DNA of 64,000 nucleotides from Mytilus edulis (taxonomy: Eukaryota), in contig NC_092352.1 of assembly GCF_963676685.1 (NCBI RefSeq), positions 80,848,001-80,912,000 of the forward strand, given 5' to 3'. The notes beneath the pieces are model-generated. The model saw only the letters and a list, made by a program, of their open reading frames with translations. It was not told the origin of the DNA and did no database searches. Below, piece by piece: positions 3,973 to 52,636 of the stretch; within the stretch, counting starts at the first letter, position 1, and each line of letters begins with the position of its first letter. A program made the position numbers and the translations under genes.

Positions 3973-6900
3973 TCAATTCATATTGATCTGGCTAATATCT
4001 TTGATACTGATGACATTAGTTAAGGCTCCTGAGATTGGAATCTGTGAGACAGTTATGATTGGGGTACCAGCACTGTTAACATTGGGAGCTAGTAATGGCA
4101 AGTTGGTCATGGATACAGGTTGAACTGTTAATTTCTTCTTACTATTAGCTGTATTTGATTCAGTTTTGACAGTTCCTGTCTGTTTAATTCTCATTGAAGG
4201 TTTAGTATCTTTCACTGTACTGTTTCCTGTATTCTTCATTGATCCCATATTTAACAGAAGCTTCCTCATTTCTGCGATATCATGTGTTTCAACATGTTTT
4301 TGTAACTGGAGGCTTGTTTTGAATGTAGTTTCACAAACATTGCATATGAAATTATCCTGATGAGTTTGCTGATGACGATGTAACTTGTAGTTTGTCGGAA
4401 ACTGTTTACCACAGACATCACACGTTGGAACGCCACGTTCATGTTTACCTAAATGTCTTCTCAACAGTTCTTTATGTTTGAATTTCTTAGAACAGATATG
4501 GCATTGTTCAGATTTCTCTTTGAAATGAATTCCCCGATGCCGTTCCACATCTGGCTTGCTACGAAATGCTTTGTTACAGATAGGACAAATAAAAGGTTTC
4601 TCTCCAGTGTGTATAAGCTTGTGCCGTTTCATATTTGTATTTGATGAAAAACTCATATTACAAATTTCACACGTCACTTTGCACGGATTGGTATGTATCT
4701 TTCTATGATCTATCAAGTATCGCTCGATTTTGAAAGCTTTTCCACATATTTCACAAACGTGAGATTTTGATTCCACATGTGTAGTTTGGTGACGGCGAAG
4801 GTTTGACATGGACATGAAACTTTTGGAACAGGTTTCACAATAGAACGGTTTTTCACCAGTATGTGATCTCAAATGTATTTCCATATCACTATTAAATTCA
4901 AACCGCTTGTGACAAATTTCACATTCCAATTTCTTGTTTTGATCGTTGGTTCCATAATGTAAATTAAGGTGACGGTTCAAGTTAGAATTCCCACTTAGCA
5001 TTACTTTGCAGATTGGACATTCGCGTTTCCTCCTTCCCATTGAAGTATGAACATTTATAACATGCTCCTTCAAGTATCGTGGACAGACAAATCTTCGATT
5101 ACATTCAGGACATTCATACTTTTTCTCAACAGAATGAAGCTGCTTGTGTCTTCGTAAATTCGAGATCCTACTAAACTTCTTATTACAAAGATTACATGGA
5201 TATGGACGGATTGCCGAATGAGATTTAATATGATCTTCTAATCTAGATTTCTGAGTAAATGTTTTGTCGCAGAGGTTGCACTCATATTCTTTAGTATCTG
5301 TATGTGTAAGTTCATGCCGCATCAAATTTGCACGGAAGCTAAACTTCTTGTCGCAGTAGCTGCATTTGTATGGAATATCATTATGGAACTTGATATGCCT
5401 AGTCAGGGCCCTTTCGGTGAAGAAGTAGTTTCCACACATATCACAGAGGTACGTTTTAGACGTCTCTTCTCCTTGTGCATCTCCCTCATTGTTATATATA
5501 GAGCTATTGTCTTCATCAGTTTCAATCATTTCAAGAAAATCATCAATGTCCAAATCATTACTTTCCTTGTACTTTTCAATAACTTTTATATGTCCAGAGA
5601 CAGTCTGGCCGAGAGCAAACTTTGCAATGTACCACTGAAGGTGATTCTGTAAATAATCCCTGGAAACAAACCTTTTCTTACATTCTGTACACTGATATCT
5701 TTTTGGACCATGAAGTTGTATATGCTGTTGAAAGCCAACAACAGAAGTGAATGACTTCAAACAGACATTACACTTCAGACCTTCTCCACTGATGTTCTCT
5801 GGTGTGGTCAAGATCTTTGATTTAAGCAGATCTCTTTCACGCGTTTTACCTTTAATAGAATGTGATTTCACATGTCTCCAATAGTTGGGATAATTTGTGT
5901 AGACTTTAGTGCATTGTGAACAATTATACACCTTTTTCTCATTCAAATGTGACATGAGATGTTCTTCCAGATGCCAAGGAGACCTAAACATTTCTTCACA
6001 CGTCTGGCATTTATATCTGACATCAGACCCGTGAGATTTCACATGTTTGTACATGGATGGTTTCAAAGTGAAGGTTTTGAACAGAGACCACAAGTGTATG
6101 GTTTGATACCTTTATGTCCCCGCTTGTGAACAAACAAGGTACCAATGTTTTCCAAAGCTCTTCTGGCAGATATCACATTCAAACCGCATACCTTTCATTT
6201 CTTGTAGTGGTCTGCTGTATTTACATTTGTGCTTATCAAACAGTTTACTATTCAGGAAGGACTTTTCACACAATTTACATGTAACTGGCTTTAAACCTGT
6301 GTGTGTGTACAAATGTATATCTAAACCAACTTTATTTGTGAATTTACGTTGGCAGTTGCCATAGTTGCATGCATACAAAACCTTCGATGACCTTGCATTT
6401 TTCGATACAATCAAAGGTTGTGTCTGTTCTCGTTCAAATATTTTTCTCCTCTTTTTAGGTTTCTCCTCGTGGTAATGGTTTTTAACAGCATTTATAACGT
6501 TAGCTGTGGCTTGAAGTAGACCCGATTCTTTCAAAGGCGGTAGCTACGATATCACGAGTGGGAAGATACTCAGTTGTCTGCCCTTCTGAAGTTGTAACTA
6601 TACCTGATTTGAAATACAATCTCCTGACTGACGGTCTGCTATAAATGCACTCTCACTAGATTGTGCTAAAGAGTTCTGAAAGGAGCTCAGCAGCTCAGGG
6701 TCAATTTTACTATCATTAATATCTGTGTACATGTGTCCTTCAGTCATAATTGAACCTGAAGTGTTGTAATAATTTTGGTTATTAAATTCTGATGTAGATG
6801 GTAGCATGCCTTCATATTCCTGCGTGTTTTGTATAAATTCCATGCCACCTTCCTGCACAGACTCAGTTTGCATTGGCAGAACTTGCAATGACGGGCTACT

Positions 6901-12220: not shown

Positions 12221-12543
12221 TTACCATACCATGTGGATGTGTTTTTGAAGAATAGAAAATCATTATCATACTTAGTTTAATTACTTATGCCAGAGTAAAG
12301 CATAACATCAGGACCCCTCCTATCCCTCCTTAATATTTACGGGCTCTAATTGATCTGAATAAAATAGTCTTTTTAGACTTTAAAATATTCTTCATTCCCC
12401 TCATCATTCTCCAAATCATAGATGCTGGTTAAAGTTCGATTCTAAGTTGCAATGTGTTAACATATAGTAGTCTGGTTCGTAGTAAGTAAGTAAATTATTT
12501 ATTATATATAGTGACATATATCAGGAACATATATATTATGTTA

Positions 12544-12842
12544 GGCAGCAACCATTTGATTTTCTGGGGGGGGGGGCTATGTTTTTTTTTCTGTACAAAC
12601 TTTTTTTTTCGCCTGTGGCGAAAAACAATCTATTTTTTTCGCGACAAGTCAGTCGAAAACAATTTTTTTCTTTCAATTTTAGCATTACATATAGTGGCAG
12701 CTGAGGGTGAAACAAACATTTTTTTTTTTCTCAGAATCAAAAACAAATTATTTTTTCTCTCCAAAAACTGGAAACAAAAACAAACTTTTTTTCCAAAAAA
12801 ACATAGCCCCCCCCCCCCCCAGAAAATCAAATGGTTGCTGCC
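12544..12842. mobile_element. PIF/Harbinger-type MITE
   Basis: TTA TSD; ~45 bp near-perfect TIRs GGCAGCAACCATTTGATTTTCTG(G)nCTATGTTTT. Confidence 0.9.
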
Positions 12843-13019
12843 TTAGATATACTGTTCCCAGCATATATATATATATACTTGTTTTGCTTTGTCACGATAG
12901 TTCCACCTTTTGTCCCTTTTCTTAAACCCGAATGAATCAGAGACTGTATCTCGAGCTATGTATAGATTCTGTATAGTAACTATACAGATTAGTATTGTAG
13001 TATATAATACGTCCATGAA

Positions 13020-13370
13020 TGAATATACGTCATAATCCAAATATAGTATATTCTGATCGGCATTGTCCAATCAAACGTCCCAGTTGTGGCAAACCGCCAA
13101 AATATTTTTCTGATGCAATACACGACGTATTACTATATGCTTGCGCCAAAAAATATAAACCATCATTAAAACACAAACTAATACCAGATTAGGATATCAA
13201 ATTCATCAACCTTAATATTTTTTAAATATCTCTTATCAATTTATAGATAATCGATAAAATACTGTTTTATGTTTTCAACTCCATTTGTTTTATAACCGTT
13301 ATGCGGAAGAAGATAACCTTGACAAGGAAGTTTAGTAGCGCACCTTGCCCACAATCGTCCATTTTATGAT
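13020..13370 (+). promoter_or_regulatory. Putative ATF4 promoter
   Basis: CpG-enriched relative to flanks. Contains TACGTCA (13026), CCAAT (13067), C/EBP-like TTGTGGCAA and TTGCGCCAA, TGATGCAAT (13111), ETS-like GGAAG, CCATTTT. Confidence 0.55.
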
Positions 13371-13431
13371 ATGCCAACGTAGACAACACAGCGATAACAC
13401 ATTTCCGTGTGCCAACACGACGATATTTACG

Positions 13432-13443
13432 ATGGATCTCTAG
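13432..13443 (+). promoter_or_regulatory. ATF4 uORF1 (ATG GAT CTC TAG, 3 codons)
   Basis: 3-codon uORF ending 58 nt before the uORF2 ATG in the predicted exon 1. Confidence 0.75.
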
Positions 13444-13501
13444 CGAGGACGTGCCCAACCACAGGAAAGCTTAGGCTTTCAGCTACACTTTATTTTTAAT
13501 C

Positions 13502-14263
13502 ATGGCGTAAGTACAATTACATATCTTTGCTAACAGAACGGTTTCCTTGTTGATTTCATAGATTTTGTATTATTATGAACAATGTGGGTAAAATATACAT
13601 ACAGTTTAATACAGAAAAATGTAATTTTGTATTGACACACTCGTAAAATCGAAAAAATGTCTTTGACAGAAACTAAATGATGGTATTCTGAAAAAAAGGG
13701 GGAGGGTAAATGTCGAAAAGGGGCGGGGAAGTTGGCAGATCCCTCGGACATCAAATCTACATCACTTTGAGAATTCGTATGATTCATTTCCGTCTTAAAT
13801 TGCAATAATTTGTTTATTTACTTGACTTGAGAAAAAAAGTGGGGGGGGGGGGGGGGGGGGGGGGTAATAATGATATGATCAATGTAGAGTATCCACAAGT
13901 TATGGTCGGTCAGTATTGATTATTATATTTTTGTCGACCCCAGTTTTTTCAAAATTCTGATCAAATTTGTGTACATGTTAAAAAAAAATATTATTTTATA
14001 GTTGAGATTGCTGACATCAGTGACTTGGTAGAAATGAGATTTCAGAAGAAATTTATTTTTAATGTGATAATTGTTATATTTTCAGGTTACCCAACATACT
14101 TTTCTTTGTTGCCCTATCAGTGGCTTACGATTCTGCAGAAATCACAAGTTTTTCATTATCATCATTTGAAGATAAAAATGAGTTCATTATTCCAAGAGAT
14201 GGAGGAGTTTACTCTGTTCGACGGGCTTGTCCCGTCGAGCAGCGGCTTCGGGCCGGGAGTTGA
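13502..14263 (+). promoter_or_regulatory. ATF4 uORF2 (60 aa, spliced 13502-13506 + 14086-14263), overlapping the main ORF out of frame
   Basis: ATGGC|GTAAGT donor and TTTTCAG|G acceptor give MALPNILFFVALSVAYDSAEITSFSLSSFEDKNEFIIPRDGGVYSVRRACPVEQRLRAGS*, with stop at 14261-14263, downstream of main ATG 14178. Confidence 0.8.
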
Positions 14264-15830
14264 AGACCTTGACAAGTTTGATGTGGGATTTGGAATCCCT
14301 GGTGACAGTCTAGTCAAAGATGAATATGGTCCAGGAGAATTATTTGAGGATGTTTTGTCCTCTGGACCACTTGAAGGTGTGTTTAAGATTAGGATATTTG
14401 TGGAAAGTAAAATAAGAACTCTAAAAAAATCAAAACAGAAAGCATATAAAATTAAAAAAAAACATGGAATCAACAGCTGAAACACATCAAACTTATGCAC
14501 AACAAACTGATAGTTTCAATGGATTTACTTAGTTTATAAAACAAGGACTTGACATGTAAACAGACACATATTATTAAAATTATAATCCATTCAAAATACT
14601 AGTTTATATCCATAACATACATGTACATGTATTTGAAATGTAAAGTGTATAATTAAGCATAAATGGTAAATCTTTAATTTGCTTTTAAAAAAAAATATGT
14701 TGCATAAAGCCAGACGGTGCGAGATGGAACATTCATACTGACACTAGCAATCAAACTTAAATAAAAGAAAAATTGTAACCTTCCTTCTTTTCACTAGAAT
14801 ACCAAATTAACATCTAGAGACGAGAACAATTTATATAAATATATCTTTGCACACAAGTACATTTTGTAGATGTTTATGTTGTAAATTGCATAAGATAATG
14901 TACATGTATTTAAACTTTAAATCATTTATTTTGACAGAAAATAATTGGATGGAAACAGTTGATCTCAGCTGTTTACTTGGGGACAATAATTCCCTTCTAT
15001 CCGAACAAGAGACAATTCCACATACCATCAAAAGTGGTCGACTCCTGGAAGAATTACTAACACAACCTATCAAAATAAAATCATCGCCAACTGTTCCAAA
15101 GAACACGCAATATGACGCAGTGAAAGTTATTAAAAACAATTCAGTTGAAAATAAACTGATTAACAACCAAACTGAAGTCTTGAGTCAGAAATTGGACATT
15201 AGTATAAAATCTGGCAGTATTCTTGAAGAAGCAATGGGTGAAATTGAAGGAATAGACACTTTGTATTTACAACAGCAATTACAAGAGTTGTATGACTCAA
15301 GTATTTCACACTGTGACAGCTCTATAAGTGACGGTGCTACCTCAAATGAAGTTTCTTTATTGGATAGCAGCAATTCTAGTTTAATGGACGTGTCTATGAA
15401 CGAATTCATTGCTTCTCCGTTGTCATCCGAAGATATTGACAGTATTTTATCTAGTCCGGAACCTGCTTCACCTGCAAGTAGTATTCAAGAAGATCCGGAT
15501 TATGTCCCTTACATATCTGACAGTAGTACAAACAAAAAATCTAGAAAGAGTCCGAAAGAGGGCAAAAGTAAACCTAAGCCCTATGACAAACCTGTTGAAA
15601 AACTAGACAAAAAAGAACGAAAAAGAATTCAAAACAGGAATGCTGCCATACGATATCGTGAGAAAAAGCGTCAAGAGCGTGGAACAATTCACACTGATGA
15701 AGATGTACTCAGTGATAAAAATAAAGAACTGAAAACTAAAGTGGAACAGTTGGTCAATGAAATCAGTTATATGAAAAATTTACTTACCGAAGTTTGTCAA
15801 GCAAGGGGGTTAAAAATTCAATTTAAATAA
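14178..15830 (+). CDS. ATF4: Activating transcription factor 4 (bZIP), exons 14178-14376 and 14938-15830, 363 aa
   Basis: C-terminal KPKPYD...KLDKKERKRIQNRNAAIRYREKKRQE plus leucine zipper; WME.VDL motif; phase-1 GT-AG intron keeps frame; uORF leader typical of ATF4. Confidence 0.92.
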
Positions 15831-16139
15831 AAAATTAAGGGAGGAATGTAATTTATTTTCATTTGTAAATACTCATTGACAGGAATGTCACCAGGTTGTA
15901 CATTTTGTTTCATGATCATGATTAAAATTATTTCTGCTGTGATTATGCTTTTCTTGGTATTTTGTCCCACGAGTGAATAAAACATGTCCTTAAAGATGAA
16001 TTGATGTATGATGACCAGTTATATAATAAGTACATTTGTAATGGATAGAGGCAGCAATGTTATCCCAACAATACAATTTAAATCAAAAGATACCTTGGGA
16101 GGTCAACACAATGTCTTGTACAGTATGTCTATAGATATA

Positions 16140-16440
16140 GAAAGATGTGGTATGAATGCCAATGAGACAACTCTCCATCCAAGTTGCAATTTGTAAAAGT
16201 AATCTATTATAGCAAATTACGGTCTTCAACACGGAGCCTTGGCTCACACTGAACAGCCAGCTATAAAGGGTCCCAAAAATGACTAGTATAAAACAAATCA
16301 AAACAGTCTAATCTAGATAAAAAAAAACGACAAATGAGAAACGCCTGTATGAACCACATCAACAAACTAATTAACATCAGATTCCTGACTTAGGACAGGT
16401 GCAAACAAACTCAGCAGGTTTAAATGTTTTAATAGGTATC
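16140..16440 (+). repeat. High-copy short interspersed repeat (AGATGTGGTATGATTGCCAATGAGACAACT family)
   Basis: Related copies at ~100-350(-), 25035-25080(-), 28845-29180(+), 42668-42740(+), 42840-43145(-), 49310-49495(-), 52520-52940(-), 62410-62590(+), 62845-62966(+). Confidence 0.85.
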
Positions 16441-18907: not shown

Positions 18908-38614
<19,707 letters not shown>

Positions 38615-43452: not shown

Positions 43453-45339
43453 TCACTGGTACGCAAACACTTGTATCGATTTGGAAGATCCAACAAGCCA
43501 CAAATTTCCACATTCATCTACTATCATGTTGGTAGTATTACAAACATCGTCATTTTGACTCAACAAATTTTGTTGAAAATTGCCGTTATCGAATAACATA
43601 TAGACAATTCCATTTTTGCTGTCAGCTAGAAAAACATTTCCATGATTATCCGAAGCGATAGCTTTAAACTCTGCTTTATTTTTCGTAAAAGTTTTAAGAA
43701 CCTTAAAATGTTTATCAGTAAAATGAACGAAATCTCTGCAGAAAGAAATTACAAAATTCGAATTGTTTGTTTGTTTAATAGTTACATTTCTAGTAGACCA
43801 TATATTATACTTGTTTTTGATAGAATCTGCAACTTCAACATTATTGAAGACACCGTCTTTCTCTGATAACTCATAAAGTCTGTCATCTTTTTCGTTTAAA
43901 ACAAGCAAATTGCCATTGCTAACTACACAACAAAACTCGCAATTTTTAAATGGAACTTCGTAGCGTTTTTTATGTTTTGATTCTTTTATATCAAAAATCG
44001 AACCTTCAGACCAAATCCATATATCATTGGCAGATTTCCTAATAGTACGTTTTGGGAATCTTGAATAAGGAAGTGTATAATTATTTGTCTTGAATATTCC
44101 TTTGCAACTATAATTACAAATAGTGTCATCGGTTAATATCCAGGCATTGTCATTTTCAGCTGGAACAATGTCTTGTATATTGTTCTCAAGCTTGAATTCG
44201 AATATTTTTTTTGATGTAATCAACGATTTACATGCAAGACCTAGATCAGGCATAGACAATTGTGGGTAATTTGGCGTTGTTTCGTTATTCTTTGCTCTAG
44301 CAGTAACCTTTCCAAATATTTCTTCTATAACATCTTCAGTGACATCATTCCATTCAAAATTCAAATCGTGAGTGGGAGGGAAAACATTTGCAGATGTATC
44401 CAAGACGTTATCAAGATGTTTTCCGATGACCGGAAACTCGTTAAGGAAGTTTGCATCTGACGAATTATTAACGAAATCCTCTGTTATCATGACAAGTCCC
44501 AATAAGGACATTTTTCCTGTTTCGATTTCGCTTCTGAAAATTTTAAGTTCTTTTATATCTTCCGTCTTTATATTGTCAATAGTATCTAAGTTTTTATTTT
44601 TAATTTCTTCGACAGTACTACAAAACCGATCTTTCAAACTCGCAGCACGTTCGTTTACATCCTGTTTTAATACGAGACAGTGTTTATCATAGTTAATTTC
44701 TTTTAATCTTACAATTTCAGCAGTATTGTGTAGAAATGAAATTCTAGATTTGAAGCTAGCGATTCTGACTAACAACTTTTCCTTTTTAGTTTGAAGCAAA
44801 GAAGATAATTTTTTAAATTGATGACGCCGATGGTAATCTTCTGAACATTCGATGCACAATAAACAATTACATGGTTTACAGAAGAAGGAAAATTCCTTGC
44901 CATGGTCTTTGCATTTGTTCTTATTATTAGCTCCAGACTGATCAACCTCCTCTGATTTAAGCTTTTTCAGGGGTTCAACTGTATGATTCTTGGATGCTTT
45001 CAATTTTCCATGGTAATTTCGACAATTACTGCATAACTTGATTTTACATTCCAAACATGTTGCCATTGCAACATTTTGTTCATCACATAACTCGCATGAA
45101 TCCATAACTGCATTTGGTTCCGTCAAATATTCCAATTTGAACGGATAAGGTTTAAGACCACTAACTCCATTATCCGGTAAAGATATATTTGTTTTACATA
45201 ACGGACAAACTATTTTACTATCTCTCACATCAAGTTTCTGAAGGCACGGTGAGCAGAAAGTATGATAACAGTCTAAAAGTTTAGGTTCTATAAAACAAGA
45301 CTTACATATTCCACACTTGGAATTACAGCCTTCCGCCAT
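43453..45339 (-). CDS. Tripartite motif (TRIM) E3 ligase-like protein: RING, 2 B-boxes, coiled coil, NHL-like beta-propeller; 628 aa, intronless CDS
   Basis: C3HC4 RING CGIC..CYHTFCSPC..CPLC; B-box1 CELC..CLEC..CSNC..H..H; B-box2 CKDH..CKPC..CIEC..HRRH; IASDNHGNVFLAD and IVDECGNLW repeats. Confidence 0.9.
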   Translation of the reverse strand: MAEGCNSKCGICKSCFIEPKLLDCYHTFCSPCLQKLDVRDSKIVCPLCKTNISLPDNGVSGLKPYPFKLEYLTEPNAVMDSCELCDEQNVAMATCLECKIKLCSNCRNYHGKLKASKNHTVEPLKKLKSEEVDQSGANNKNKCKDHGKEFSFFCKPCNCLLCIECSEDYHRRHQFKKLSSLLQTKKEKLLVRIASFKSRISFLHNTAEIVRLKEINYDKHCLVLKQDVNERAASLKDRFCSTVEEIKNKNLDTIDNIKTEDIKELKIFRSEIETGKMSLLGLVMITEDFVNNSSDANFLNEFPVIGKHLDNVLDTSANVFPPTHDLNFEWNDVTEDVIEEIFGKVTARAKNNETTPNYPQLSMPDLGLACKSLITSKKIFEFKLENNIQDIVPAENDNAWILTDDTICNYSCKGIFKTNNYTLPYSRFPKRTIRKSANDIWIWSEGSIFDIKESKHKKRYEVPFKNCEFCCVVSNGNLLVLNEKDDRLYELSEKDGVFNNVEVADSIKNKYNIWSTRNVTIKQTNNSNFVISFCRDFVHFTDKHFKVLKTFTKNKAEFKAIASDNHGNVFLADSKNGIVYMLFDNGNFQQNLLSQNDDVCNTTNMIVDECGNLWLVGSSKSIQVFAYQ

Positions 45340-45918
45340 TCTTGATATTGTGCGGTTCGTTGGACAAGGAAGTTATTAAAGCTAACGCTATGTATAGAAA
45401 TCAATGCATAGCAACAGCCACGCATATCAATTATAAATGTTGAATACGTAATATAATTATCGTTTATAATTTGTTTAGTAAAAGGATTATTTCTACTTAT
45501 AAATCTAGCACTCTTATTGTTTAAAAATTTTGTTTGTTAAAGTATCTGACACAGTGACATATCGACATTTTCCCTAACATCATATATCGTGAATTACCGT
45601 CACCAGATATGTTGGAAATAAAGATTTCCGTACGTTCGAGATAGGTAATTTGTTTTAGTGAAAATGGGTGTTTGTATTGAGAATTTTGTAATTTCGATTG
45701 CTAGATATAGTTTGCTACATGCACAGAAAATATCTGATACAAGCGGTCTAAATGATAAAAATAAAGTAATCTGTCAACTTATCTGACTATAAATATATTT
45801 ATCATATACTTAGACTAAATAACATATGATTTTTACTGTATGATAATAGCATTAAAAAAACGTAAACTCCATATTTTTCGAATTGGTGCTGAGAGGGCAG
45901 ATATGAAAAGTTTATATA

Positions 45919-47094
45919 AATGTGTTATCGAAAGGTCCCAAATATCGTGAGCCTAAATCCATCAATTGGAAATACAACTTTAAAATTTTGATGGATTCAG
46001 TCGAGGATTATGCCAGGCAATGGGCTAAGCGCGAGAAGGAAGACGTAGACACTCTTTCCGAATGGATTAAGGCAGTGAGGTCGTTGATACAAATCAGAAT
46101 TAAGAAACTGAATGGGTCCATCAATAACCATGCTACGTCAATCTTTAAAGACCCAAATGTTGCAAAACACCTATCCGACCTCCATGACAAATATGTTGTT
46201 GTCCCTGCAGATAAAGCCCCAAATAACATCGTTTTTGTGTGTAAAAGTCACTACATCAACTGCTTGATAAACGAATTAGGTATTGACAATTCACTTGGTA
46301 ACTCAACATATACCCTCACGACACTTACCAAAGAGGAAATCCTGGATAATCATAGGTCTGTTCTATGTTCCTTTGGAATTTCAACCAAAGATGAAGAACT
46401 GGATCTTCCATCACTCTATTGGATACCTAAACTACATAAGTGTCCTTACAAACAACGGTATATTGCTGGGTCTTCCAAGTGCTCCACGAAACCTCTTTCT
46501 AAATTATTAACATCTATTTTATCAGCAATCAAAGACGGGCTTCAAAGTTATTGTGAAACTGCCTATTCTAGAGGTGGCGTGAATCAGATGTGGATACTTA
46601 AAAATTCAAAAGATCTTTTAGAGTACATACAATCTAACTCTCTTTCATCTTGTAACAGTATTAAAACACTTGACTTTTCTACCCTGTACACAAGTATTCC
46701 ACATTCCAAACTAAAAGACACATTGAAAGAGTTGATATTACTTTGCTTCATAAAAAAGAATGGCCAACGTAGATACAAGTATCTTGTCTTAGGGAGGGAT
46801 AAATCCTACTTTGTAAAGAATCACTCTGATTCAAACAAAAAATTCTCTGAAACTGATATTATCAAGATGCTTGATTTCTTGATTGACAACATATTTGTTA
46901 CGTTCGGAGGACGTGTTTTTCAACAGACTGTCGGCATTCCAATGGGAACAAACTGTGCCCCTCTACTCGCCGACTTGTTTCTTTATTATTATGAGGCTGA
47001 CTTCATGCAGGAACTTCTTAGGAAGAAAGATAAGAAGTTAGCAATATCCTTTAACTCTACTTTCCGCTATATAGATGATGTTCTTTCACTAAAC
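45919..47094 (+). mobile_element. Penelope-like element reverse transcriptase fragment
   Basis: LSKGPKY, PADKA, LYWIPKLHK, RYIAGS, LDFSTLYTSIP, QQTVGIPMGTNCAPLLADLFL, FRYIDD; similarity appears to end just after YIDDVLSLN. Confidence 0.85.
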
Positions 47095-50000
47095 GACAAA
47101 AACAAACTTTGCAAATATGAAATCAAAATGAAACTACAGTTGTTTGCGCCATTACCTTCAGAACAAAGGGAACCGTTAGATAGTCCAAAATACTAAAATG
47201 TGTCAAAAATCTATACTTATAGATTTTATCAACACAGTCAGACAAGAATTTAAAAAGGTATTTGGGCAGTTTTGATAATAAAAGAGTGGATGATGTAGAA
47301 TGTGTGAAAAATTACAGTTTAATATCGTTTCTTAATAACAATCATTAGTTATATGATTGCCAACTGATAACAAAAATTGCCTTTGCCACTTAGTCTTCAG
47401 GGATTAAAATCGTTTATTTATAATTGTCTACAATGTAAATTACTAACAAAACCTCTATGTCTAGAATAGTCATCATTGATTCTGCATAATTAATCGAACG
47501 TTGTATGATGTGCAACACACGTTTAACAATAATGTAATGTGTGATTAAACTACAACATCTACCTACATACCTATGTTTTTTCGTTTAAGGAAAATGGTTG
47601 TGTTCTCCCAATGTGCGTCACTCGCATGTGATAACATACAGGTAGGACATTTCGTTCAAATAGCATTCCTTTGTTGGTTCCTTGACATAATAGACTTCTA
47701 CAGAAGACATTTAGACCAGGGATGAATACGATTAATTGAGACTGGTCAGCTGAAATTGTTTTATTTTGGAGTGGTCCGGTTTTTTTTTAGCATAACTGAG
47801 AATTTCTATCAAGAAAAATATTTCTATTTTTGTCAATACAATATTTTTTATGATATATTTCAAAAACAAATAATCTTTTTGGGAATAATTGACGAAACTT
47901 AAATCAAATATGTGTCTTTCTCAAGTCAAACACAGGCAAAACGTAGTCTTAAATAAATAAGTTTAAAAATCTTGTGAGACTCCTGCTTTATCTCGATACA
48001 TAACACATTTCAAGCTGAATTTAGCAAAATAAAATATATTTTTCGTCAATTCAGAGAGATCTTAATAAAATTTGATATATTATTGTAGTATCTTGGAAAA
48101 GGTGAACTCTTCTCTATATCAAATATATTCAATATCTAATTAGATGTGTGGATATTTCAAAATGTGTTTGAGAATTAATTGTTTTTTTTAAGTAAAAAAA
48201 AGCAGTCGATTTGGCGTTTTTCTTTGGTCAGAGATATAAGAATCGTACAAGTCTATTGCATAGTCGACAATACTGCACTGCTCAGATTGAAGATTTGTTA
48301 TTTGGCATTGATCATAAAAATAAAACCAAACTGGTGTAACACATCAGAACATTCTTCATGTTCGTGTGTTTATAGGTGGGAAAAGTCAGTGGTATATCTG
48401 TTACATTTGTAAGGTATATTTACACAGAATATCATGCTGAAAATAATTCTTATTATACATGTCATACATATATTTAGTCACTACGAACAACATTACAAGT
48501 GATATAATTTCTATTAAGTTTAAAGCTAAAATTTGCACATTAATCAGTTACTCTAGAAATTTATGAATATTTTCTCTAAACCATAACAGTTTTCCGTTTT
48601 TTTTAATCAACAAATATGTGATCTTTATCCATAGTTTAAATCAAACATGTCAAAACATTAAACATATACAATATCCGTACTTATTTGTCTACAAGATAAA
48701 TAAGAAATAAATTAACGTAGAGAAGAAATCTCGTTGACGATAATATCAATTTATGTAGATTTACAATATAATATATCATATCTGATAACTTTCACCACTT
48801 TTGATATTGACATTGATAAAACAACATTTTTTTCATCACGGTAATCTTCAATTTTGAAATTTTCGTTACTAATCACCGAATAAAATATATTAAAGTTACA
48901 GTCATAAACGTCAAGATACCTTGATTTACAAATCGACAGAAAGTTAAAAACCAATCTATACGACAAACAAACAAATAAATGATTAGCATTCAAGATTCCA
49001 TATATTGAATTTTAATGTACCACTACCAGCTATATATGCAGCTTATGGATAAACCTCATGAAAAGATACCAGACTAAATTTTAATACGCAAAACTATTTC
49101 TGCAACAAACATTTGTGGTACTGGAAATCTACTTTTAATAACCAGTACTATTTTGTTACTTTAAATTTATTGTAATATTTAGGTAACTGTATTTTACAGT
49201 TCTTGATTTGTACTGACAATTTAAGTACTACAGATTTATTTTTATCACTATCGTTAAATTTTTACTGATAATTGCTGTACATCGATCTGATGAGTTAATC
49301 CTTTCAATTGATTTTTATAGTTTGTTCATATGTTGTACCTTTGTCATTTCGGGGTTTTATATAGCCGACTATGCGATATGGGTTTTACCCAATGTTGAAG
49401 GCCGTACGTTGATCTATAGTTGTTTGTTTCTCTGGCATTATGTCTCTTGGGGAGAGTTGTCGTATTCACCATCATACCACACCTTCTTAATTTTATATGG
49501 AAATGTTTTGCAGGGCCGTTGAAACTCTACTATAACCACCGTCATTTGATTGAAGTCCATATAACATGTAATAAATGTTTATTATGATAACAGGTAATTT
49601 TGAGATATATATGTTTTTGGTATTTCAGGTGAACGAAGCACAAACCAATCAAAGTCGATCTATTAACTCTATCGTTAATTACAAAGTCCAAAATATTTAA
49701 ACTGCTATAAGAACAACTAACCCGTTTAATTTGCTATGATCTGGACTACATTACGGAAAAGTACACCCACCTCTTTTCCCACGAATTCAGATGAGCTAAT
49801 CATCAATTCAAATATATCACCAGATTTTGTTTTATATATATAACATTTGTATTTTGTTTTCATTTTACCTATTTGGTCTTATATTTTCAGAAAAGTATCC
49901 CAAAAAATAGTTACCACTTTGACATCGTTAAGTTTTAACTCCAATAGTTCATTTAAAAATTATGATGTTGTACAGAAACGTAGCTATATTCCCAGAATTG

Positions 50001-50251: not shown

Positions 50252-52143
50252 TCATTGATAAGAAAACACCCTAATACATTTTGATGCTCCAACCAGCCAC
50301 ATATATCCACATTCATCTATTATCATGTTGATTGTATTATTTACACCATAGCTTTTATTCATCAATGTTTGCTTAAAAACACGATTTTCAGATATAACAT
50401 AAATCATATCACTTACGTAGTCCGCCACGAGAGTATTTCCATAGTTATCTGTGGCTAAAGATTTAAAAAGGGCATACGGCTTCTGAAATGAATCGAGAAC
50501 TATGAAGTTTTTGTCAGCAAAAACAATTACATCTTTGCTAAAAGATATAACAAAGTTGAAATTTCGCAATTGCTTCATAACTATTCTTTCGCCGGTAAAT
50601 GTGCTACCTTGTTGTAATATGTTGTTTGGATCTTTTAGTTCAAATTTGTTCTGAATACATGCACTTGAATATTCTGTATCTTTTAACTCGTAGAATATTT
50701 TTTCAGTTGGACTATACACAAACAGATTACCATTCCTACTGAGGCAACACAGTAATCCATTTCTAAATGGAACAGTGCAGAAACGAGAATAAATTGATTT
50801 ATTATTCTTCACAACAGAATTCTCATACCAAAACAAACTCTAGATGCAGATTTATGAACAAAATGTTTAATGTCAGCATGAGTATCAATGCTCTCGTCTT
50901 TTATACCCTTACTACTATACCTACAAGCCATACCTGCAGTTAATAACCATGCATTGTCATTATTTGTTGGAATAATGTCTAGAACTTCATTCGAAACTAC
51001 AAACTCGGACCGTTTTACTACTTTATGCGCAGGTAAGAGACTAAGTTCAGGTACAGGTAAATGTGGATACATTGGTTTTACCTCTTTTTCCTTTTCTGTG
51101 GCAGTTATCTCTCCAAATATTTTTTCTATAACAACTGAACTGACATCATCCCATTCATAATTCAAATTGTGAATGGACGGAAAGATATTTACGGATTTAC
51201 GCAAGGTTTCATCAAGACGTTTTCCAATGACAGAAAACTCTTCAAGGAAGTGTGTATCTGATGATTGATTAACGTAATTCTCTGTTGTCATTATAAGTCC
51301 TGATAACGAAATTTTGTCAGTTTCGATTTGATTCATGTACTTGTCAAGTTTTTCTATATCTTTCTTCTTTATATCGTCAATAATATCTAAATTTTTATTT
51401 GTAAGCTCATCGACAGCACTACAAAACCGATCTTTCAAATTGGTGGCACGTTCTTTCACATTGTGTTTCAGAACGAGACAGTGTTTGTTATAGTTATCTT
51501 CTTTTAGTTTAACCATTTCAGCAGTATTTTGTAGAAACGATATTCTGGCTTTGAAACTAGCGATTCGGACTAACAACATTTCCTTTTTATTTTGAAGTAT
51601 TGAAGATAAGTTTTCAACTTGATGACAAGGATGAATTTCTTCTGAACAATCAAAACACAATAAAGTATTACACGGTCTACAGAATAAGGTAAGTTCCTTG
51701 CTATGCTCTTTACATTTTGTCTTGACAGTTGCTTCAGTTTGATCTAGTTTCTCTGATTTAAGAATTTTCAACGACCGAATCACATGATTCTTTGATGTTT
51801 TCAATTTTCCGTGATAATCGCGACAATTGCTGCATAAATTGGTTTTGCAGTCCAAACATTTTGACACCGCAAAGTTTTGATCATCGCATAAGTCGCATGC
51901 ATCCATAACCTCATTGTTTACTTTCACATATTTTAATTTATATGGATAAGGTTTTAGACCACTTACTCCTTCGTCTGGTAAAGAAATGGTTGTCTTACAT
52001 AATGGACAGATTATCTTATTGTCTTTGATATCCAGTTTCTGAAGACATGGCAAACAGAAAGTGTGATAACAATTTAAAAGTTTAGGTTCTGTGAAAACAA
52101 AAGACAAACATATTCCACATTTCGAATCACATCCTTCCGCCAT
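50252..52143 (-). CDS. Second TRIM paralog with a single frameshift near 50835 (assembly error or pseudogene)
   Basis: ORFs 52143-50809 and 50836-50252 together align end to end with 43453-45339 (MAEGC.SKCGIC...DECG..WLVG...I.VF.YQ). Confidence 0.85.
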
Positions 52144-52636
52144 GTTCGATATTATAAAATACGTCCGACAAGGAAGTATAAGGGCTCACGTCATCATGTG
52201 TTTAAAGTTCAATGCCAATAACAACCATTTAGATTTGAAGTGTAATGTTGAAAACGTGATACAAGTATCGTCTTATTAACAATCAATAATATATTAATCA
52301 ATGTTGAAGTATTTTATTGATGTTTGTTTAGTAAAATTTATTAGATCTTCTTCTTTAAAACTTATACTTGTTTTTTAAACTTTGTCTTATCAGTACATTT
52401 GAAAAAGTTTTGAGCGCAAACCAAACCTACACAGTTTTTGATATTACTGCCCTAAATCAAAATATAAGATAGATTGCAGACTTGTTAATATGACAACTAT
52501 CATGTAGTTTGTACCCGCTACAAGTCAGAAACCTGTATTTCATTGGTTTTCTTTGATCGAAGTTTATCATATTTGTTGAATTTGTTTTAAAATTTGTTTG
52601 ATTTTTTTAAATTGTTTTGTTTCATAAATTAACCCA

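Follow-up and report, generated by a model that had tools for sequence, protein, structure and literature searches.

The ATF4 gene of Mytilus edulis carries a real, expressed leader in which a three-codon uORF (uORF1) is followed by a second one (uORF2) that is split by an intron and overlaps the ATF4 start out of frame. By analogy with mammals and flies, we consider it highly probable (roughly 0.88) that this leader works by delayed reinitiation. The switch itself is textbook, and paired uORFs are already on record in molluscs; the position of the intron, after the fifth letter of uORF2, is shared with human and bryozoan-like loci and is an addition that we did not find in print. The DNA analyzed is a stretch of 64,000 nt (assembly GCF_963676685.1, contig NC_092352.1, positions 80,848,001-80,912,000), referred to below as the window, and all mussel coordinates are those of the window.

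Layout of the mussel ATF4 leader

The initial annotation, made from the letters alone, had described a uORF1 reading MDL*, a 58-nt spacer and a 60-aa uORF2 that starts MAL and continues across intron 1, and the sequence bears out this arrangement to the base, from uORF1 through the spacer and the intron-split uORF2 to the overlap with ATF4. The features of the gene are as follows:

13360..13506, + strand: exon 1, with RNA 5' ends near 13357-13360 and at 13417
13366..13443, + strand: weak-context AUG located 6 nt from the 5' end; its 25-codon frame is that of uORF1
13371..13382, + strand: extra three-codon uORF (MPT*), covered by RNA, 49 nt 5' of uORF1 and missed by the initial annotation
13432..13443, + strand: uORF1, three codons (MDL*), in a strong start context (A at -3, G at +4)
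13444..13501, + strand: spacer without AUG, 58 nt, read from the sequence (37-58 nt among relatives)
13502..13506, + strand: letters 1-5 of uORF2 (ATG GC), closing exon 1, from sequence and RNA junction
13507..14085, + strand: intron 1, 579 nt, GT-AG, after letter 5 of uORF2, from junction reads
14086..14263, + strand: remainder of uORF2, which has 60 codons in total, starts MAL and stops at 14263
14178..14376, + strand: ATF4 coding start, in exon 2, with an N-terminus matching P0001-P0003
14199..14201, + strand: second in-frame ATF4 AUG, in a stronger context, 16 nt 5' of the hairpin
14215..14241, + strand: predicted 11-bp hairpin, placed like human SL3, -17.9 kcal/mol
14377..14937, + strand: intron 2, 561 nt, phase 1, with 29 and 20 junction reads
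14938..15942, + strand: exon 3, with the rest of the 363-aa ATF4 including the bZIP (stop at 15830) and the 3' UTR up to the poly(A) site at 15942

In the spliced transcript uORF2 is in frame +1 relative to ATF4, overlaps it by 86 nt, and has its ATG 97 nt 5' of the main ATG at 14178; from the stop of uORF2 to the intron-2 junction, the last in the transcript, there are 113 nt. Unspliced, uORF2 reads MA* and is closed at once by the donor. The Met encoded by the second ATF4 AUG, at 14199, is aligned in most bivalve rows and in the caenogastropod-like rows. RNA structure in exon 1 is at chance level (z -0.48). A poly(A) tail follows 15942 on a contig of RNA-like run X4, which also carries a 6-nt in-frame insertion at 15591, just before the ATF4 basic region.

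Identity of the gene and stress-pathway partners

The 363-residue protein, assembled from three exons, contains a bZIP domain (PF00170, E 3e-10), and its sole PDB match is ATF4 (1ci6). Exon 3 is 97% identical to a RefSeq-style record of Mytilus galloprovincialis that is named 'uncharacterized'; relatives in scallops are named ATF-4-like, the protein groups with bivalve ATF-4-like proteins, and the profile search also brings up ApCREB2 of Aplysia. The bZIP region has one match among five candidates in the mussel's own genome, and on these sequence grounds we take the gene to be the single ATF4 gene of the mussel. Vertebrate ATF4 and ATF5 are both co-orthologs of the invertebrate gene. A processed pseudogene was considered as the source of the splice junction described below and was rejected, given the single genomic bZIP locus and DNA-like runs that lack the junction.

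Among the partners expected in the pathway, an eIF2alpha exon carrying what we take to be the Ser51 motif is present in the same genome. A GCN2 domain search returned no match, and since its control was blank too, this carries no weight either way. PERK is described in oyster, in the part of PMC9680061 available to us.

Splicing and 5' ends of the transcript

The junction 13506^14086 is present in all three raw RNA runs, with 34 reads in X21, 18 in X22, and 24 in X23 (one study, chosen by species label), and in contigs of all three RNA-like runs X1, X3, and X4, which come from two further studies, confirming the splice that the initial annotation had placed there. It is absent from both DNA-like runs (X15 and X20), whose contigs continue across the two splice sites. 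Assuming the usual stranded library type, all junction reads have the orientation of a + transcript.

Read depth over intron 1 is 0-0.3, compared with 9-37 in exon bins, in X21 and X22, and it is 0 in X23; splicing therefore looks constitutive, and removal of intron 1 does not look like a switch. A scheme in which intron 1 is nevertheless the switch, its retention reducing uORF2 to two codons and so altering ATF4 output, takes some encouragement from the MA* of the unspliced frame and from a donor that also shuts the frame in the bryozoan-like locus L023 and in the human sequence. The stop is, however, part of the donor consensus, the frame stays open in the bryozoan-like locus L026, and a retained intron 1 would bring with it many AUGs. 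Regulated retention was thus rejected on the lack of intron-1 depth in the three raw runs, and we regard it as very improbable.

The RNA 5' ends form two clusters, which are read ends and not caps. Upstream, five molecules end at 13360 (X21) and a contig of X3 begins at 13357; downstream, six molecules end at 13417 (X23), as does a contig of X4. Both clusters lie upstream of 13432, and both uORFs are thus inside the transcript. The leader of the long form measures 239 nt, and this form is common, since 10 X23 reads cover 13367 compared with 24 at the junction. The description of the switch as 'complete' therefore does not hold, as RNA also covers 13357/13360-13431 with two more AUGs that the initial annotation had missed. 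These added AUGs could divert ribosomes, and the extra 5' uORF likely only tunes output. The AUG at 13366 is polymorphic: a T>A change at 13367 destroys it in 6 of the 10 X23 reads.

Leaders of related loci

A scan of metagenome contigs yielded 31 loci, of which 18 are spliced and have a leader, five are genomic and were treated apart, and eight were left out: L011, L020, and L022 are truncated or their frame was not placed by the script, the contigs of L028, L030, and L031 start 56 nt or less from the start, and L027 and L032 have a leader that was not placed and a long branch. In a quick tree without bootstrap, the relatives fall with Mytilus, other bivalves, caenogastropods, heterobranchs, and the bryozoan Watersipora; L004, L006, L015, L016, L025, and L029 have no phylum placement.

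An overlapping uORF of 39-72 codons is found in every one of the 18 leaders, several of which are near duplicates; in each its frame is +1 and its AUG is flanked by A at -3 and G at +4. A uORF1 of 2-5 codons precedes it in 14 leaders (three codons in 11 of them) at a spacing of 37-58 nt, and the remaining four begin too near uORF2 to show one. AUGs are frequent in an AT-rich leader (local GC is 33%, with 10 AUGs within 13000-13506), which might suggest that the layout is a chance arrangement of such AUGs; the identity of frame and start context in 18/18 relatives, together with an intron position common to three phyla, refutes this notion, to which we give practically no weight.

Two further elements vary among the leaders. 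In 13 of the 18 relatives (L003, L004, L005, L007-L010, L012-L015, L017, and L021), a third AUG located 13 or 16 nt into uORF2 opens a uORF of 2-20 codons in the ATF4 frame. A third short uORF inside uORF2 and, in arthropods, a poor-context uORF 5' of uORF1 are both recorded in the available part of PMC4176352. Mytilus differs from those leaders, and from the 13 relatives, in having no third short uORF, which, judging by the sequences, it has lost or never possessed; the extra mussel uORF 5' of uORF1 is placed like the arthropod poor-context uORF and like the human start-stop element (PMC11058473). An upstream AUG in frame with uORF1, lengthening it to 9-25 codons, is seen in four lineages (at 13366 in the window, 49 in L006, 7 in L015, and 43 in L029).

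Intron position across phyla

The initial annotation had proposed that human uORF2 also starts MAL and has an intron after ATGGC, and both details proved right: in a human genomic/cDNA pair the overlapping uORF starts MAL and is interrupted by the intron directly behind ATG GC (PMC13587735, supplementary file 2), and a human construct sequence shows the MAL start too (PMC11058473, supplement). Among the genomic relatives, L023 and L024, which are bryozoan-like and represent one species, contain a complete 734-nt intron after letter 5 of uORF2, and L026, also bryozoan-like, contains a complete 102-nt intron after the same letter. Splicing of L023/L024 and of L026 each restores a uORF of 43 codons that begins 73 nt 5' of the main AUG. 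In L018 and L019 the acceptor occupies the corresponding position, and no donor could be located on these contigs. When the intron-2 join was searched for, it was found for L018 only, and none was found in L023 or L026.

The suggestion that the leader, including the position of its intron, is conserved across bilaterians is thus upheld to the same letter in mussel, human, and two bryozoan-like loci, and the human and bryozoan-like loci therefore bracket the protostome-deuterostome ancestor. The split between human, mussel, and bryozoan is more than 500 million years old. By our own estimate, taking the leader as ~200 positions, a second, independent gain of an intron would hit this letter with a chance of ~1 in 200, and the start of uORF2 is therefore most simply read from these sequences as homologous between molluscs, bryozoans, and humans.

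Juxtaposition of an upstream AUG and a leader exon junction is known to be conserved between human and mouse (PMC5961209, as available to us). The mussel leader resembles that case in that the interval between an upstream AUG and a leader junction is fixed, and differs from it in span, since the published comparison is limited to human and mouse whereas the mussel case crosses the protostome-deuterostome split. The word 'intron' goes unmentioned in the main texts of PMC4176352 and PMC4433282, and the available part of PMC12839439 contains nothing on the intron.

The uORF2 peptide

Across 12 uORF2 peptides (39-72 aa), Met 1 is the only invariant position, and the mussel peptide has no Pfam match. 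In the non-overlapping part, differences at codon positions 1/2/3 number 85/96/112 among five caenogastropod-like sequences and 46/42/44 among four bryozoan-like sequences, counts that are pairwise sums and not independent; they give no third-position excess as a sign of purifying selection on the peptide. One comparison does stand out: a gap-free alignment of the mussel peptide with one caenogastropod-like uORF2 has 13/41 identical residues and beats shuffles (p 0.003, non-overlapping part), and on this one might propose that uORF2 encodes a functional peptide, conserved together with its MAL start. The other 14 of the 15 comparisons are at chance. The MAL match is itself weaker than it appears, because the start context already accounts for MA, and just one of the 18 related uORF2s, that of another Mytilus, starts MAL. 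With no Pfam match, no invariant residue beyond Met 1, and no third-position excess, the functional peptide was rejected, and it is even less probable than a switch by intron retention. Since the peptide bears no signs of selection, uORF2 most likely acts by being translated and not through its product, as far as these sequences indicate.

A predicted hairpin in the uORF2/ATF4 overlap

In folding stability the overlap surpasses 199 of 200 shuffles (z -3.08), which is due to the predicted 11-bp stem at 14215-14241. Among the relatives, 8/16 have z ≤ -2 in the final 56 nt of uORF2, compared with 15/138 control segments (dinucleotide shuffles), where the controls are segments of the same coding regions, not the same stretch of other genes, and the 56-nt size was picked after the first results were seen. 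For 10 of 12 groups, these 56 nt are more structured than the group's own coding region (binomial p 0.019), and a synonymous-codon null gives 7/18 compared with 11/124, with the higher local GC not controlled. Little structure is present there in the bryozoan-like rows, L008, and L025, and covariation is seen in 1 of 21 pairs across six caenogastropod-like rows. Two common alleles, both silent for ATF4, each break a pair of the mussel stem: one at 14225 (20/25 X21 reads) would weaken it to -14.8 kcal/mol and one at 14234 (10/15 X23 reads) to -12.1 kcal/mol. Taken as predicted, the hairpin likely only tunes ATF4 output.

Human SL3, according to the available part of PMC11058473 (Smirnova et al., 2024), has a stability of -15.4 kcal/mol, is located mid-overlap, is preceded by a CUG at a distance of 20 nt, and is aligned in 10 mammals only. 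The predicted mussel hairpin resembles it in being the strongest local hairpin mid-overlap and in having an in-frame start shortly before it, an AUG at 16 nt in the mussel compared with the CUG at 20 nt in human; it differs in that it is predicted, carries alleles without compensation, and shows little covariation. Enrichment of a predicted SL3-like hairpin in invertebrate relatives, without covariation, is an addition that we did not find in print. If the hairpin proves functional, the queuing model of human ATF4 would reach invertebrates.

Promoter and neighborhood

One candidate element lies upstream of the transcript:

13111..13119, + strand: candidate C/EBP-ATF response element, 321 nt 5' of uORF1

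With what we take to be the C/EBP-ATF consensus, a motif of this type is found on the same strand in all three promoters available, at -321 in mussel and at -307 and -306 in the bryozoan-like loci (L023 1036-1044, L024 1903-1911, and L026 4205-4213). It is the sole match in the whole of L023 (8,959 nt) and of L026 (11,731 nt); over the window as a whole the motif is not enriched, with 10 occurrences compared with 9.5 expected, and what favors the candidate is solely where it sits in the three promoters. The candidate site may possibly mediate feedback of ATF4 on its own gene. Its recurrence 306-321 nt upstream in three promoters is likewise an addition that we did not find in print.

An initiator-like CCATTT is located at the 13360 RNA end (13359-13365) and occurs also in L003 (2-7, at the 5' end), in L006, and in L023, where it lies 33 nt 5' of uORF1; L026 and the other 16 leaders, many of which are cut short, show no copy of it. 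The human transcript starts with the last five letters of this motif, and the human ATF4 and mussel transcripts thus open with the same five letters.

Around the gene, a MITE-like element of 313 nt (12537-12849), with 73-nt inverted ends that are 78% complementary, lies ~500 nt 5' of the ATF4 start, and a high-copy repeat with very many RNA reads on both strands (16067-16400) lies just 3' of the gene. Farther off, and named by the look of their translations, are a C2H2 zinc-finger exon (3973-6111, - strand), two RING/B-box (TRIM-like) genes (43453-45372 and 50252-52185, both - strand), the second of which seems to be divided near 50820 into two overlapping frames, and two retroelement-like pieces (35443-36039 and 45907-47196, both + strand).

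Mechanism

Mammalian ATF4 uses a three-codon uORF1 and an overlapping uORF2 for delayed reinitiation (PMC3434475 and PMC13587735). Carried over to the mussel, ribosomes would translate the three-codon uORF1 and then resume scanning. When ternary complex is plentiful, they would restart 58 nt on, at uORF2, and so pass the ATF4 start out of frame; termination of uORF2 113 nt before the last exon junction would leave ATF4 off, and the mRNA may then be a target of nonsense-mediated decay. Mammalian ATF4 mRNA is such a target. When eIF2alpha is phosphorylated, some ribosomes would skip uORF2 and start at the ATF4 AUG at 14178 or at 14199, and stress induction of mussel ATF4 via its leader is, by analogy, likely. 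Intron 1 would in this process be an old, constitutively removed landmark of the uORF2 start.

The spacer is 58 nt in mussel and 87 nt in human (the latter counted by eye), and more ribosomes should therefore skip uORF2 at rest in the mussel. Studies elsewhere, in the parts available to us, both support and qualify the analogy: in Drosophila reporters, loss of uORF1 lowers output and loss of uORF2 raises it (PMC4433282), and in human, SL3, a start-stop, and leaky scanning modify the simple model (PMC11058473).

The uORFs might instead only repress constitutively and feed decay; transcription, together with the use of either the 13360 or the 13417 start, would then determine output. Such an arrangement would be compatible with the two clusters of RNA 5' ends, with the candidate promoter element, and with the position of the uORF2 stop, whose distance of 113 nt to the last junction exceeds the 50-55 nt given as the rule for nonsense-mediated decay (PMC12607236, as available to us). 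Plain repression, however, needs no very short uORF1, and one is kept at 37-58-nt spacing in 14/18 relatives; the same layout is, moreover, stress-inducible in Drosophila (PMC4433282, in the part available). We consider constitutive repression improbable, though less so than the alternatives weighed above, and favor delayed reinitiation.

Comparison with known ATF4 leaders

As given in the available parts of PMC3434475 and PMC13587735, the mammalian leader has, in human, uORFs of 3 and 59 codons, with a uORF2 of 180 nt that overlaps ATF4 by 83 nt (PMC3434475); the uORF2 AUG is therefore 97 nt from the main AUG, as in the mussel. The two leaders are thus alike in the three-codon uORF1, the 59- or 60-codon uORF2, the 97-nt distance, the MAL start, and the intron after letter 5, and both have an extra element 5' of uORF1, a start-stop in human (PMC11058473) and a three-codon uORF in mussel. 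They differ, besides the spacer, in an overlap of 86 nt in mussel compared with 83 nt in human.

The label 'vertebrate-style', under which the initial annotation had placed the leader, is a misnomer, because paired uORFs were already known across metazoa, including a mollusc (PMC4176352). That paper (Hiraishi et al., 2014), in the part available, describes conservation of the paired ATF4 uORFs throughout the metazoa, nematodes excepted; Aplysia, insects, and Hydra are among its examples, and its species list may include Mytilus. The invertebrate pairs it records, like that of Drosophila crc (PMC4433282), have the same paired arrangement as the mussel.

In a search that had subscription literature mostly outside it, no publication came to light that compares the position of the ATF4 intron between phyla or deals with an SL3 of invertebrates, with a site for feedback in the promoter of ATF4, or, among the matches listed, with a bivalve ATF4 leader.

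A more far-reaching reading is that the ATF4 module was inherited as a unit from the last common bilaterian ancestor, complete with the intron-anchored uORF2 start, an SL3-like queuing hairpin and its preceding in-frame start, a downstream junction that couples translation to decay, and a C/EBP-ATF feedback site. We put this forward tentatively and, taken as a whole, think it rather unlikely; if true, SL3 queuing, described so far for mammals, would be pan-bilaterian. The same intron letter in human, mussel, and bryozoans is, for its part, a rare direct sign that a regulatory uORF start is homologous and not re-invented. For the stress biology of the mussel, the level of ATF4 mRNA is likely to be a poor readout of ATF4 activity.
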